DNA of 64,000 nt from an uncultured bacterium (GCA_963707655.1 OY970172.1:416001-480000), one strand, 5' to 3'. Shown: positions 55,508-62,877, counted from the stretch's first letter. The notes: generated from the letters alone by a model not told the origin. Numbers and translations are program-made.

Positions 55508-55828
55508 ATGTTAAAAGCAATGCTCCTCTCTTTAAGTCTAATAACAACCGCCCTGGTTGCGATGAGTGATAGTGATGATGAAGCTGGTTATGTGGGTGAT
55601 ATTGATGATGAACTCGCCACGGAGCCCCTTTCAAAGCAAAGGCCATCCAAAGCAAAAAAAATTACTCGCCCTGGCGCAGCGCCATCCGTTTTTGTAACTC
55701 TGCTACTCCCTGTCGATGCTGATGAAGCGAGCAGACATACGCCGCGCAGAGAACAAAGCACACTTGGCACAATACCAGAAACCGGAATAGAAGAAGAGGA
55801 AGAAGGGTCAACAGAAAAAACAGACTGA
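55508..55828 (+). CDS. Small secreted acidic hypothetical protein
   Basis: AAGGA RBS; MLKAMLLSLSLITTALVA then MSDSDDE; acidic and low complexity. Confidence 0.65.
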   Translation: MLKAMLLSLSLITTALVAMSDSDDEAGYVGDIDDELATEPLSKQRPSKAKKITRPGAAPSVFVTLLLPVDADEASRHTPRREQSTLGTIPETGIEEEEEGSTEKTD

Positions 55829-55839
55829 AAGGATTATCT

Positions 55840-56223
55840 ATGTTAAAAAAAATTATATGTTTATCACTGCTCACCACGTTACCCATAGCATCACGATACA
55901 TTAAACCGACACTGCACAGCGTTCCAGCGTCATACATTGCCATTGCAAAACTATTTCCCGACGCCAATTTGCAGCTTAAATTGAACGATACTATGACCAT
56001 ATTAGATGTTAAACAAACTTGTTTTAAATCGAAAAACAGTTCATGCAAAGGTGCACTCAAAAACATTGATGAACTGATTATAATGCCGGTTCTCTCTGAA
56101 GAAAAAATATGTATACCGCTGCAAGAACTATCTTTGCCAGACGACGCGCTGGTGTGTGAAGTTATACGCTGTTATAAAACAGCAAAATTTCAAGCGCTTA
56201 TTGCCAGTGAAATACCGCAGTAA
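55840..56223 (+). CDS. Small secreted hypothetical protein
   Basis: AAGGA RBS; MLKKIICLSLLTTLPIA signal-like start. Confidence 0.6.
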   Translation: MLKKIICLSLLTTLPIASRYIKPTLHSVPASYIAIAKLFPDANLQLKLNDTMTILDVKQTCFKSKNSSCKGALKNIDELIIMPVLSEEKICIPLQELSLPDDALVCEVIRCYKTAKFQALIASEIPQ

Positions 56224-56253
56224 TACCTATTTTCTAGCAAATCCCCTTTGCTT

Positions 56254-56826
56254 TTATTTTCCGTATACGACGAGTATCTTTTTCCAATCAATAAACACTT
56301 TTTCATAGGTTGTATCAAGAAAGAGAGCAAGTCTATTTACGACTTCGCGTGCATTTTTGTGATTCGATTTTTCAAATAACGGCGCTTTTTCAGAATCTTT
56401 GAATATTTCTTTTATTTTTTTCTGGATATCGCGCAAGTCAGCAAGTCTTTTTTCAACTCTTCCTCTATTTGCATCATTTAGGGCAAATGGCTTTTTGCTG
56501 AATGTTGTTGCATAGAATTCTTTTAAAGAATTAGTTAAATCAGCGCTTGCTTGCCAGAGATCATCAACTTTTTTATTAAGAGAAGATGAAGGAACTTGCT
56601 CTTTAACAAAAGTGCGTATCTCTTTTATCAGATCAAACCATTTATTTGAGTCTTCCGGCTTCATCCGTTCAAGCAGAAGGTTATCTTTACCGAACACAAG
56701 AGTGTGAGTGCTGGTGATTGCCATAAAAAGACTGTCTTTGGTCACTGCGGGTTTAGCTGGTGCGGCGTGGGTTAAAGGGCTGATGCCGGCTAGCACGAGA
56801 GCGAGTGAAATAAGTACTTTATTCAT
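56254..56826 (-). CDS. Secreted helical hypothetical protein
   Basis: AAGGAG RBS; MNKVLISLALVLAGISPLTHA signal peptide. Confidence 0.7.
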   Translation of the reverse strand: MNKVLISLALVLAGISPLTHAAPAKPAVTKDSLFMAITSTHTLVFGKDNLLLERMKPEDSNKWFDLIKEIRTFVKEQVPSSSLNKKVDDLWQASADLTNSLKEFYATTFSKKPFALNDANRGRVEKRLADLRDIQKKIKEIFKDSEKAPLFEKSNHKNAREVVNRLALFLDTTYEKVFIDWKKILVVYGK

Positions 56827-59929: not shown

Positions 59930-60448
59930 ATGAATAAAAGAATGCAATCATTGATCTGTTTATTACTGTTATGCGCTGCCGATGTCTGCGCAATGCAGCA
60001 ACAACAAGTTCAACCACAAGATCACCAGGTAGAAGCAGGTGCAGTGAAAAAGCATAAAAAACAGAAAGTCGATGTAGATGCAGAAACTAAAGAGAGCGAA
60101 AGCGCTGCTCCGGCCGATATTGCAACCGAAGAAAAAAATGTTGCCGATACCGCTGCGAGTGAAAATACAACCACTGATAATGCTTCGCAATCGATAGAAA
60201 CAAATGCAGCAGATAATAAGACAGAGGCAAAAACAAAAAAACATGTTCGCATGTGTCATCATGGTCGTCATTGTGGGAAACCTGCTGCTGATTGTCCGCA
60301 TGAGCAGTATTTTGAAAGCAGGGGTATTACAATGCCTTGTGGATGCCCTGAATGCCGCATGACGGAGGAATTCGAGAAGACAATTCAAGCTGCCATTGCA
60401 GAGATGAAAGTGAGAGGTATTCCGTTTGGTTATGGGTACCATTCTTAA
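59930..60448 (+). CDS. Small secreted protein, basic patch plus C-terminal Cys/His cluster (paralogue 2)
   Basis: Upstream and 5' DNA similar to the previous gene; KKHKKQKV; CHHGRHC...CPH...CGCPEC. Confidence 0.7.
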   Translation: MNKRMQSLICLLLLCAADVCAMQQQQVQPQDHQVEAGAVKKHKKQKVDVDAETKESESAAPADIATEEKNVADTAASENTTTDNASQSIETNAADNKTEAKTKKHVRMCHHGRHCGKPAADCPHEQYFESRGITMPCGCPECRMTEEFEKTIQAAIAEMKVRGIPFGYGYHS

Positions 60449-60472
60449 TTGCTTATGACCAATCTCGCCGAA

Positions 60473-62392
60473 TTAGACATAGAGCGGAATAACCCCTGGT
60501 CCGCTCTTGCTCACCTGCTCGCCGGTTTTTTCATCAATAAAAATTTCTTGTAATGACGGGTCGTATGAAAACTGCTTTTTAGTGCAGTTCATTTTTTCAT
60601 ACAATCTCTGCCAGATAGGAAAAGCGGTATGAATAGGAAATACATTTATCCCTAATGATTGATTATCATCGCAGCCGATATAAATACCGGTGGTTAATGT
60701 GGGCGTTGCTCCAATGAACCAGCAGGTACGCGAATCATTGGTTGTTCCCGTTTTACTCACCACCTGCGCATCAACAATCTGATTTCCCAGTTTGCAGCGC
60801 ACCCTATTTATGCCAAGTTCTAAAACTTTTGCAATTTGTCCGTTGATACGGCTTTCAATCACCCTTCCGCCGATACTGTTTTGTTTAAAGATTTTTGTAC
60901 CCCATCTATCTTTAACCCATTTAACACAATGCGGCTCAATGTACGTGCCATCATGCGCAAAAATATTAAACAGCCCGGTGGCCTGCATGAGTGAAACATC
61001 AACACAGCCCAATGCCAATGACGGGTACGGATTGTGACGCGCATCGATGTTGCATTTTTCTGCCAAGGCAATGATTGGCGCCGCTCCTGTTTTTAAAAAT
61101 GTTTTTATCGCAACAATGTTATTTGAATGAGACAGCGCATAGGCGCGCGTAATTTCCCCAAGAAATTTATGGTTATAATTTTTTGGCTTCCACAAAGAGC
61201 CGCTACTTTCAAATTCGAATGGTTCATCAACTTCTGTATCTGCCAAGCTTAATCCTGCATTCAGTGCTGCTGCGTACACTATCGGTTTTAAAATAGAGCC
61301 CAATTGCCGCTTAGCTTGCAAGGCGCGATTAAACTTTGATTGCGTGAATTGATAGCCGCCAACCAGCGCTTTTATTTCACCCGTATCGGGCTGCATGCTG
61401 AGCAATGCCCCATCAACATTCATGTTGAGCGCTGCGCGTAAATCAGTAATTTGCTGAGCAAATGCCTTGTTGGCCTTTTCTTGCAGTGCCCTGTTGAGCG
61501 ATGTCTGAATAGTCAGACCTCCCGCATACAACTCTTTGCGACCAAAAAGCAGTTCTAGCTGTTGCCGTATCATTTCTTGCGCGTGGGGTGCCAGTGCTGC
61601 TTCTTCTGAAACAATGAGCTTAAGCTCTTTCTGACTGAGTTCTGCATAGTGCTCTTCGCTGATGAATGACAGTTTTTGCATTTGCGAAAGCACCACATTC
61701 CGCCGCTGTTGCGAAGACAGTGGATACAGCAGAGGACAATATCTGCCCGGTGAGCGAATAATGCCGGCCAAAACCGCCGCTTGATCAACAGTAATTTCAG
61801 TTGCTGAACAATGCCAAAAGCGTTGGCATGCCGCTTCGATGCCGTAAATACCACAGCCAAAATAGATATGATTAAGATAGGTTTGCAAAATCTGTTCTTT
61901 GGTGCATTGATATTCAATAATCAGCGCATACAGCTGCTCTTTGATTTTGCGTTTAAAGGTTTTTTGTGGGTCAAAAAAAAGTAATTTTACCAACTGTTGC
62001 GTAATGGTACTAGCTCCCTGCATTTTTTTTCCATGATAGAGATTAACCACCATAGAGCGAATGATCCCTTTTAATGATATGCCTACATGATTAAAAAATT
62101 GCCAATCCTCTGCGGCAACAAATGCCTGAATAAGATGCGGTGGCATTTGATTCAGCACAATAGGCTCGCGCCGATCAAGCTGGAATCGAGCCCACTCGTT
62201 GCCTTCATCATCAAGCAAAAGAGAAGGCTTGCCCGCCTGATATGCAGCTAGCGGCGAAAAATCTACCGTGATGTGATTGATAATAAAAAAAATCACACCG
62301 AGTATAAAAGCAGAACTGATAAAAAGCGCTGCTCCTGCATAGTTAAGAAAAGAGCTTAAAAAAGGAAAACGGTGATTGAGCATGCGTGGCAT
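60473..62392 (-). CDS. mrcA: Class A penicillin-binding protein (PBP1A family)
   Basis: AEDWQFFNH.G, GASTITQQL, RKIKE, KEQIL..YLN; GSILKP, SNN, KTGT. Confidence 0.88.
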   Translation of the reverse strand: MPRMLNHRFPFLSSFLNYAGAALFISSAFILGVIFFIINHITVDFSPLAAYQAGKPSLLLDDEGNEWARFQLDRREPIVLNQMPPHLIQAFVAAEDWQFFNHVGISLKGIIRSMVVNLYHGKKMQGASTITQQLVKLLFFDPQKTFKRKIKEQLYALIIEYQCTKEQILQTYLNHIYFGCGIYGIEAACQRFWHCSATEITVDQAAVLAGIIRSPGRYCPLLYPLSSQQRRNVVLSQMQKLSFISEEHYAELSQKELKLIVSEEAALAPHAQEMIRQQLELLFGRKELYAGGLTIQTSLNRALQEKANKAFAQQITDLRAALNMNVDGALLSMQPDTGEIKALVGGYQFTQSKFNRALQAKRQLGSILKPIVYAAALNAGLSLADTEVDEPFEFESSGSLWKPKNYNHKFLGEITRAYALSHSNNIVAIKTFLKTGAAPIIALAEKCNIDARHNPYPSLALGCVDVSLMQATGLFNIFAHDGTYIEPHCVKWVKDRWGTKIFKQNSIGGRVIESRINGQIAKVLELGINRVRCKLGNQIVDAQVVSKTGTTNDSRTCWFIGATPTLTTGIYIGCDDNQSLGINVFPIHTAFPIWQRLYEKMNCTKKQFSYDPSLQEIFIDEKTGEQVSKSGPGVIPLYV

Positions 62393-62457
62393 CGAGAATA
62401 ATTTTAGAAAACATTATATAGCTTCATGATATAATTTTTTGATCAAGACGGAAAGTA

Positions 62458-62877
62458 CTATGTTGGCTGCGCGCCCAAGATATCGCGGGTAATGGCGAGT
62501 TCTTTTTGGCATTTTTCCATCGCGGCAACGAAGGCTCCCAGAGAAGGAAGCAAAGAGTTAATTTCATTTGGCATGCGCGCAAGGGCGTCACTAGCCTCAT
62601 CAATATATTGAATTACCAGAACTGTATTACAACTCACCGTTTCATCTTGAATTTCTAAAATGTTTTGCCTATTTTTTTCCAATGCACCTTTTATATAGGC
62701 GTATGATATTGGATTTGTTTGCAAATTATCCGATTGCAAGCGTATTTGTCTTTGCGCGGTGGCGAGAATGGCAAGATCTAAATCTGTTTGATGCATAGGA
62801 ACATGAGGCTTTTTATTATCCATAGCACGCGCTGAAAAAATTATTAGTGTGGCAAAAAATATTTTTGTACTGCTCAT
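62458..62877 (-). CDS. Small secreted hypothetical protein
   Basis: GGAG before ATG 62877; MSSTKIFFATLIIFSARA then MDNK. Confidence 0.65.
   Translation of the reverse strand: MSSTKIFFATLIIFSARAMDNKKPHVPMHQTDLDLAILATAQRQIRLQSDNLQTNPISYAYIKGALEKNRQNILEIQDETVSCNTVLVIQYIDEASDALARMPNEINSLLPSLGAFVAAMEKCQKELAITRDILGAQPT

Follow-up and report, generated by a model that had tools for sequence, protein, structure and literature searches.

Methionine as the first residue behind predicted signal peptides in a Dependentiae genome

Here, we describe a preference for methionine as the first residue behind predicted Sec signal peptides (position +1) in the genome of an uncultured bacterium. It is exemplified by four small genes in a stretch of 64,000 nucleotides (GCA_963707655.1 OY970172.1:416001-480000; hereafter the window), each of which encodes a predicted exported protein with methionine directly after the likely cleavage site. 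Methionine is the commonest +1 residue among the predicted signal peptides of this genome, about seven times the chance expectation, and we regard the existence of a Met-first rule as nearly certain. By the sequences, the methionine marks a subclass of predicted exported proteins and is tied both to the predicted cut and to a partner residue at +2. The genome that holds the window is a single contig of 1,091,075 bp with 41% GC (its positions are prefixed G000:C1); metagenome-assembled genomes labelled Candidatus Dependentiae, Babeliales, TM6 or Babelota encode proteins that share 60-89% identity with its DnaN. The source bacterium is a small parasitic member of the phylum Dependentiae; the genomes of all sampled relatives are about 1 Mb in size.

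The gene caller used on the genome predicted 1156 genes, and our signal-peptide heuristic flagged 488 of them, which agrees with the putative signal peptides in 44% of coding sequences, enriched in ORFans and ankyrin proteins, given for Chromulinavorax destructans in the accessible part of PMC6561590. This main predictor is home-made and took the place of SignalP: it requires a basic n-region and a hydrophobic h-region (the n/h test), then takes the best -3/-1 site, and ignores +1. Methionine stood at the predicted +1 position of 70 of the 488 signal peptides, as compared to 1.98% methionine overall (binomial p about 1e-37), with counts of 10, 8, 17, 9 and 12 at +2 to +6 and of 13-21 at -8 to -4 (about 2-3%). 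The peak is thus confined to +1, from which we conclude that cut site and methionine are coupled. The genome-wide excess is what a reading of the window made from the sequence alone (hereafter the sequence-only reading) had proposed to look for. A second predictor, a version with an added polarity-switch term, returned 68 of 455, and 45 of 246 and 12 of 51 at stricter scores. A predictor based only on a position weight matrix trained on positions -12 to -1 was dropped because the sites it chose slid back into the hydrophobic core; even so, +1 methionine was present in 49 of 418 to 38 of 259 cases. With no site chosen at all, methionine followed 134 of 1862 contexts with small residues at -3 and -1 behind a hydrophobic core (7.2%), versus 2.0% for the same context elsewhere. 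The predicted cuts do not fall elsewhere in any way that removes the +1 excess.

Aspartate is the preferred partner in this genome. The dipeptide Met-Asp was seen 71 times at residues 16-30, where about 11 were expected, and aspartate followed 37 of the 70 +1 methionines (53%), versus 3.4% of internal methionines and residue 2 of 24 among 999 ATG-started proteins (2.4%). Members with +1 methionine occur in 63 of 404 BLAST families, and 53 of the 63 are singletons; with the cases spread so widely, paralogy does not explain the count.

The same pipeline found no rule in a related genome of similar GC content, G067 (+1 methionine in 2 of 79, context ratio 1.1), and returned 0 of 33 and 3 of 158 for Escherichia coli K-12 (150 kb). 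In the relative G071 (100 kb), 3 of 38 sites were followed by methionine (ratio 1.4), one of the three being the ATP synthase c subunit. In the K-12 control, the cut sites of FhuA, DegP, SurA, FhuD, BtuF, ThiB and Ivy were reproduced, and those of Skp and LptD were missed.

Enrichment was found in five of seven other sampled Dependentiae genomes. The counts of +1 methionine were 10 of 81 in G001 (same genus), 19 of 146 in G010 (same family), 12 of 92 in G034 (family f11; seven are Met-Glu), 11 of 92 in G066 (f6; seven from one MYA/MQA paralogue family), 5 of 53 in G072 (f3) and 8 of 25 in G065 (f12, 100 kb; four are Met-Lys). The rule is patchy within one family, as G065 and G067 both belong to f12. 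Across these lineages the methionine does not change, and its +2 partner depends on the lineage, being D, E, K or Y. In G065, lysine after the +1 methionine (MKRKQ..., MKKPGIKRKR...) was observed on very large proteins of 1100-1900 aa (G065:C17:1-100000).

The start codons of these genes were evaluated on a permissive Met set of 106 proteins (median 190 aa, polar start). Strong Shine-Dalgarno (SD) sites precede 53% of the upstream starts, 1.9% of the inner methionines and 3.0% of ordinary internal methionines. The inner methionine, having no SD site, is therefore unlikely to be the true start, a possibility that the sequence-only reading had named as fatal to its proposal. An open in-frame extension that resembles a signal peptide by chance precedes 14 of 465 starts of proteins without signal peptide, none with a strong SD site, as well as 2.4% of internal methionines and 1.6% of antisense ATGs; a strong SD site stands at the upstream ATG in 55 of 106 Met-set genes versus 0 of 465 for chance extensions. 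In public gene calls, all four window precursors start upstream. The middle gene of a paralogue trio (starts at 707190, 707684 and 708146) lacks the leader that is present in both neighbours and begins within the conserved mature start of the trio; it may be a truncated copy or have a mis-called start.

All four junctions listed by the sequence-only reading are present in the window (Table 1; slashes mark predicted cuts). The four leaders pass the n/h test, with K or R within residues 2-5 and a hydrophobic, uncharged core of at least 8 residues. An SD-like site stands 5-6 nt ahead of each of the four upstream ATGs, and none of the four inner methionine codons has one. The -3/-1 rule is satisfied by LVA, VCA and ARA. 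ACT fits weakly, and this cut site is ambiguous because threonine at -1 is a weak residue and the second predictor favours ADA/CTMQQ. The mature part of the LVA/MSD protein is acidic first and then basic; its exact 106-aa precursor is present in the public collection, and the inner-Met version is absent. The precursor form of the ACT/MQQ protein is also present there. As proposed earlier, the ACT/MQQ and VCA/MQQ proteins are paralogues (63% identity over residues 1-85, E=4e-18); no relative of the pair was found in 40 related genomes or among 5.8 billion proteins. In both, a start rich in Gln is combined with clusters of Lys (KKKQKKQK, KKHKKQK) and with a tail rich in Cys and His (CSLCGDPKCPW; CHHGRHCGKPAADCPH...CGCPEC); this tail may bind metal. 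A single-sequence AlphaFold2 model of the VCA/MQQ protein (low confidence, predicted local distance difference test, pLDDT, 57) leaves residues 22-105 unstructured and reaches pLDDT 72-80 at about 108-165; the protein thus modelled likely consists of a long, disordered stretch rich in Lys and Glu and, behind it, a small C-terminal domain rich in Cys and His. The lipobox motif is L-[AS]-[GA]-C with cysteine at +1. A lipoprotein reading of the MQQ pair, given the cysteine near the junction, was rejected: the sequences read ADACT and ADVCA, where Asp at -2 or Val at -1 misfits.

For the ARA/MDN protein, the single-sequence model (low confidence, pLDDT 61) has helices at residues 27-54, 59-74, 85-101 and 106-136, and the mature protein is accordingly predicted to comprise four helices. 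Its matches are limited to itself and one 94%-identical fragment. It occurs twice in public calls, as the 139-aa precursor and, on another contig, as a 121-aa protein that starts at the inner methionine; a signal peptide can therefore be lost from a gene prediction as a consequence of the Met rule. A search of the ESM Atlas with the Met-first proteins of the window gave no usable match, and a neighbourhood search of genome contigs with MurG as lone query gave no match.

Table 1. Positions of the Met-first genes, of their neighbours in the window and of further genes of the source genome. Window positions are counted from the first nucleotide of the window.
Feature	Position	Strand	Description
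LVA/MSD gene	55508-55828	+	106-aa predicted exported protein; junction ...TTALVA/MSDSDDE; no Pfam family
LVA/MSD, AAGGA	55497-55501		6 nt upstream of ATG
LVA/MSD, signal peptide codons	55508-55561	+	
LVA/MSD, Met codon	55562-55564	+	
ACT/MQQ gene	59597-59908	+	103-aa predicted exported protein; junction ...WAADACT/MQQQ; no Pfam family
ACT/MQQ, GGAG	59587-59590		6 nt upstream of ATG
ACT/MQQ, signal peptide	59597-59659	+	
ACT/MQQ, Met codon	59660-59662	+	
VCA/MQQ gene	59930-60448	+	172-aa predicted exported protein; junction ...AADVCA/MQQQQ; no Pfam family
VCA/MQQ, GGAA	59920-59923		upstream of ATG
VCA/MQQ, signal peptide	59930-59992	+	
VCA/MQQ, Met codon	59993-59995	+	
ARA/MDN gene	62458-62877	-	139-aa predicted exported protein; junction ...IFSARA/MDNKK; no Pfam family
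ARA/MDN, GGAG	62886-62883		5 nt upstream of ATG
ARA/MDN, signal peptide	62877-62824	-	
ARA/MDN, Met codon	62823-62821	-	
Calcineurin-like phosphoesterase gene	62981-64000, on past window end to window-relative 64321	-	446 aa, signal peptide
Small signal-peptide gene	55840-56223	+	PIA/SRY, no +1 Met; no Pfam family
Small signal-peptide gene	56254-56826	-	THA/APA, no +1 Met; no Pfam family
Triple AAA+ ATPase gene	57115-59583	+	MYA/NEP, no +1 Met; Pfam AAA x3, E=7e-111
Barrel family	450-10998		five paralogues, no +1 Met
Fibre proteins	14889..., 21992...		no +1 Met
Giant fibre-like ORFs	26908-39183 and 39180-42500		
Top-scoring ORF of the genome	G000:C1:555819-578012	-	about 22 kb, about 7400 aa
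Signal peptidase I genes	G000:C1:730997-731989 and 732628-733602	-	tandem, one gene between
C2H2 zinc-finger cluster	G000:C1:358647-364929	+	
C2H2 zinc-finger cluster	G000:C1:725791-730060	+	
GNAT acetyltransferase gene	G000:C1:60552-61004	-	signal peptide and +1 Met
GNAT acetyltransferase gene	G000:C1:784560-785027	+	signal peptide and +1 Met
Ntox17 protein gene	G000:C1:316142-318043	+	633 aa, signal peptide
Leaderless middle gene of trio	G000:C1:707684-708058	+	

The carriers of the methionine are mostly small proteins without Pfam family. Pfam matches at E<=1e-6 were obtained for 21 of 103 Met-set proteins (three of the 106 span locus borders and were left out). Six of the 21 are plainly not exported and represent false positives of the motif (BrnQ, FtsW, DnaN, YmdB, a GyrA fragment and ATP synthase c), and the other 15 comprise six C2H2 zinc-finger proteins, two ankyrin proteins, two GNAT proteins, a DUF4258 protein, a phosphoesterase, an alpha/beta hydrolase, an S49 peptidase and a thioredoxin. 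The comparison set consisted of 195 proteins that have a signal peptide and a polar mature start but lack the methionine (median 254 aa), chosen on their -1 score; 95 of them, taken alternately from the 190 that had a reference, were submitted to Pfam. At E<=1e-10, matches were found for 12 of 103 Met-set proteins, five of them non-exported false positives, versus 41 of 95 in the comparison set (Fisher p=8e-7), which includes BamA, S41 peptidase, DegP, a secretin, OmpA, FKBP, NamZ and GH3. Homologues in 1.38 Mb sampled from relatives were found for 22 of 106 Met-set versus 79 of 195 comparison proteins. The Met-set genes also cluster, with 20 adjacent Met-Met pairs versus 8.6 expected and a maximum of 19 in 5000 shuffles.

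We rejected the idea that the leaders form a distinct class of signal peptide, as those of the Met set are much like the rest; the chief difference is Asp at +2 (49 of 100 versus 18 of 195). They differ also at Leu -8 and Ala -1, the alanine difference arising partly from the selection of the comparison set. In the full Met set, the residue after methionine is D in 49, Q in 11 and E in seven proteins (67 together) and N in none, and L, F, Y, I or W follow in 6 of 106 proteins of this set, which was chosen for a polar start. Within paralogue families of the genome, the methionine and the n-h-c layout are kept while the next residues diverge; in G066, one paralogue has valine in place of methionine. 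Sharing of a leader without similarity of the mature parts is rare (three Met-Met pairs), and shuffling of leader cassettes was discarded on that count. In two adjacent gene pairs, the leaders are nearly identical and the mature parts dissimilar.

The C2H2 zinc finger is a eukaryote-type DNA-binding domain. Six proteins with Pfam zinc-finger matches lie in two clusters, and all proteins of both clusters have a signal peptide and then methionine (CWA/MV..., LTC/MD...). Both GNAT acetyltransferases are small, and the best solved relative of the first in Table 1 is chain 4ua3_A, an uncharacterised N-acetyltransferase, with a weak match (E=1.4e-3). Nothing ties these two proteins, noticed in passing and not in a systematic search for a modifying enzyme, to the Met rule. 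Another signal-peptide protein carries a C-terminal Pfam Ntox17 domain (novel toxin 17, E=4e-28).

The neighbours of the four genes provide a contrast. The triple AAA+ ATPase gene sits between Met-first genes, and its product carries a signal peptide, which is surprising in an enzyme that needs ATP unless the host cytosol is where it acts. A neighbouring TPR protein with signal peptide likewise lacks +1 methionine. The barrel family and the fibre proteins have the junctions A/AD, A/ND and A/AP, which bears out the earlier remark that the envelope proteins of the window lack the pattern. The phosphoesterase offers a possible fifth junction, AKA/MAD, with an equally possible earlier cut at LPA/SFD; it was counted in the permissive Met set, and its homologues in G072 have no methionine.

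Dependentiae are widespread obligate parasites of protists, and more than 40% of their proteins have signal peptides. We know of no type III or IV effector signal in this phylum, and to our knowledge its host-acting signal-peptide proteins cannot yet be distinguished from the others. Under the N-end rule, an initial methionine is stabilising when the next residue is not hydrophobic, and it is also the normal substrate of host N-acetyltransferases, among which NatB acts on Met-Asp, Met-Glu, Met-Asn and Met-Gln N-termini. We therefore favour, tentatively and with less than even confidence in the whole statement including the rule, the reading that exported, host-exposed proteins are selected for an ordinary Met-first N-terminus that is tolerated by host systems. 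Small Sec-type proteins would be cut by signal peptidase I directly before the predicted +1 methionine, which would be selected as the first residue of the exported protein across a genome-wide class. The proteins would then leave the bacterium and meet the host cytosol, where a Met-initiated N-terminus should be tolerated by the N-end-rule and aminopeptidase systems and could be capped by host N-acetyltransferases, the benefit being stability or capping. The selected feature would be the identity of the new N-terminus, and a role after export into the host would leave envelope proteins outside the rule, as is seen.

Several findings weigh against this reading. Cleavage itself is predicted from the -3/-1 rule by a home-made heuristic, and the second public call of the ARA/MDN gene uses the inner methionine. 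The sequence-only reading had proposed a test for enrichment among eukaryote-like as opposed to periplasmic housekeeping proteins. Classical envelope proteins do lack the methionine, but so do many eukaryote-like proteins with signal peptides, namely three WD40 cases and others with ankyrin, TPR, AAA, PLA2_B and PLD domains, and the thioredoxin and the S49 peptidase carry it. A +1 methionine is thus no requirement of eukaryote-like secreted proteins, nor does its presence single them out. Motifs resembling a nuclear localisation signal (K[KR]x[KR]) were not enriched in the Met set, with 0.14 per 100 aa versus 0.13 and 0.17. Of six readable pairs with the congener G001, four have A, T, A or K in place of the methionine, within leaders that are still homologous, and the loss between same-genus orthologues indicates a soft, fast-turning preference, not a requirement. 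Three of the four window proteins continue with D or Q, as proposed for NatB substrates, and the MSD protein does not fit. However, NatB acts mainly on nascent chains, and two observations weaken a version of the reading that is specific to NatB: Met-Asn does not occur among the 106 proteins, although Asn is common, and there are lineages with Met-Lys and Met-Tyr; Met-Glu prevails in another. A wider formulation leaves the reader of the N-terminus undecided: signal peptidase I would expose methionine and a lineage-specific partner on a fast-evolving exported arsenal, and this Met-first code would be read after export either by host machinery or by a bacterial export step. We hold this to be a genuine possibility, short of a probable one.

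A bacterial reader alone is what the first rival explanation invokes. The exposed Met-Asp would be a second-step sorting signal by which a bacterial machine, be it an outer-membrane route, vesicle loading or a processing enzyme, moves proteins out of the periplasm, much as export in malaria parasites is steered by the N-terminus that PEXEL cleavage leaves; the sequence-only reading had offered a similar signal as its second option. The tight linkage between the cut site and the residues Met and Asp, the confinement of the pattern to a subclass of signal-peptide proteins that leaves out classical envelope proteins, and the clustering of the genes all agree with such a signal, the lineage-specific +2 residue (D, E, K, Y) would fit a co-evolving reader, and a secretin is encoded. 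We nevertheless consider it unlikely, though a rival to be taken seriously, as no candidate reader was found, many likely host-directed proteins are without the methionine, and its loss between same-genus orthologues would be odd for an obligatory address. Nor does the copy number of signal peptidase I track the rule.

The latter enzyme is central to a second rival, in which methionine reflects the substrate taste of the signal peptidase I of the lineage: Met and Asp would be the best residues at P1' and P2', and fast-evolving, highly expressed exports would drift there without any role after cleavage. The genome has two signal peptidase I genes in tandem, both matching TIGR02227 over the cut-off, with products of about 325-330 aa that have an insertion relative to the model and in which, by eye, the Ser and Lys motifs are retained. 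This duplication and insertion would fit such a taste, as would the softness and fast turnover of the rule, the otherwise ordinary signal peptides of the Met set and the precedent of a phylum-wide +1 rule in Bacteroidetes, going by the accessible part of PMC5837995. Yet envelope housekeeping proteins cut by the same enzymes do not show the methionine, and the +2 partner varies by lineage. The same tandem pair occurs in many relatives, including G067, which has no Met rule, and we therefore do not regard the number of these genes as correlated with the rule. This explanation is improbable in our view but, like the first, deserves serious attention.

Fossil start codons would account for the methionine without any function: cytoplasmic or newborn genes would have gained a leader by upstream extension or fusion, and the old initiator would have stayed behind. 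The raw material exists, as chance signal-peptide-like extensions precede 1.6-3% of ATGs, the carriers are young genes without known family, and the two adjacent pairs with nearly identical leaders would fit such an origin. However, a neutral fossil is expected at variable distance from the cut, and the excess lies at +1 only; Asp follows 53% of the +1 methionines versus 2.4% at residue 2 of proteins. Moreover, paralogues retain the methionine while its flanks diverge, orthologue pairs show it arising inside an already homologous signal peptide, and the sharing of leaders without mature similarity is rare. We regard such an origin as a poor candidate for the class.

The inner methionine as a second, SD-independent start, from which each gene would yield a leaderless cytoplasmic form beside the exported one, is still harder to sustain and very unlikely. 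SD-independent initiation does exist here, with 318 of the 1156 genes lacking any SD-like site; the U-rich leader-coding RNA before the methionine could be unstructured, and one public gene finder picked the inner methionine of the ARA/MDN gene. Against this, SD sites at the inner methionine are at or below background, and the nucleotide columns before it in the Met set contain no -10-like conserved columns and so no sign of a promoter for a leaderless mRNA. GTG and TTG were not clearly enriched at +1 (7 of 18 versus 23% and 15 of 51 versus 25%; low power), and it is not evident what purpose about 100 small proteins, unrelated to one another, might serve in leaderless cytoplasmic form. That the inner methionine is the sole true start and the leader an untranslated chance sequence is largely refuted and has hardly any probability left, for although such extensions precede about 3% of starts and the predictor is home-made, the SD sites at the upstream ATGs, the n-h-c organisation kept across diverged paralogues and the results of the same pipeline in G067 and E. 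coli speak against an artefact.

The +1 methionine separates about 100 small, fast-evolving predicted exports from the envelope housekeeping set and provides a testable shortlist of candidate effectors. It also raises the question at the host interface whether the first residue of a Sec-exported protein matters in the eukaryotic cytosol. For annotation, the inner methionine can make gene finders drop a leader, as in the one public call noted above.

The leaders share the features of classical Sec/signal peptidase I substrates, with basic residues in the n-region, then a core of hydrophobic residues, and small side chains at -3 and -1. Unlike in the E. coli K-12 sample, where no predicted site is followed by methionine, this is the commonest +1 residue. 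The nearest described phenomenon to this lineage-specific +1 Met rule in Sec substrates is the Q-rule of Bacteroidetes, in which Gln at +1 of signal peptidase I substrates is cyclised to pyroglutamate by glutaminyl cyclase, as proposed to shield the new N-terminus from aminopeptidases (accessible parts of PMC5837995 and PMC10653852). Both are phylum-restricted excesses of one residue exactly at +1 behind a Sec signal peptide. They differ in the residue itself, Gln versus Met, and in reach: as far as these sources go, the Q-rule applies to the majority of substrates, periplasmic housekeeping proteins among them, whereas about 15-35% of signal peptides, mostly of proteins without known family, are concerned here, and BamA, DegP, S41 peptidase, the secretin, OmpA, FKBP and the barrel family of the window lack the +1 residue. 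The Q-rule furthermore has a modifying enzyme, and the Met rule is instead coupled to a lineage-specific +2 residue. Our literature searches, which covered papers without their supplements, returned no published Met rule; the words 'methionine', 'Dependentiae' and 'TM6' are absent from the accessible text of PMC5837995, and 'methionine' and 'N-termin' from that of PMC6561590, in which a +1 rule is not described. The rule would be only the second lineage-specific one for the residue behind a signal peptide. With respect to the substrates of NatB, 67 of the 106 Met-first proteins continue with D, Q or E, which contrasts with the absence of Met-Asn and with the Met-Lys or Met-Tyr of relatives. 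A further parallel is the PEXEL of Plasmodium, where, in the part of the literature at hand, a cut made along the secretory pathway leaves an N-acetylated N-terminus of the form x-E/Q/D, which the protein requires to be exported into its host cell. There and, by prediction, here, parasite exports are processed to a defined new N-terminus with D, E or Q second; however, PEXEL belongs to a eukaryotic parasite and depends on plasmepsin V and RxL, none of which applies here, where -3 to -1 are small or aliphatic and not RxL. If true, the Met-first code would be a bacterial analogue of the principle behind PEXEL in malaria parasites, and the Q-rule would no longer be the only +1 rule at the level of a phylum.

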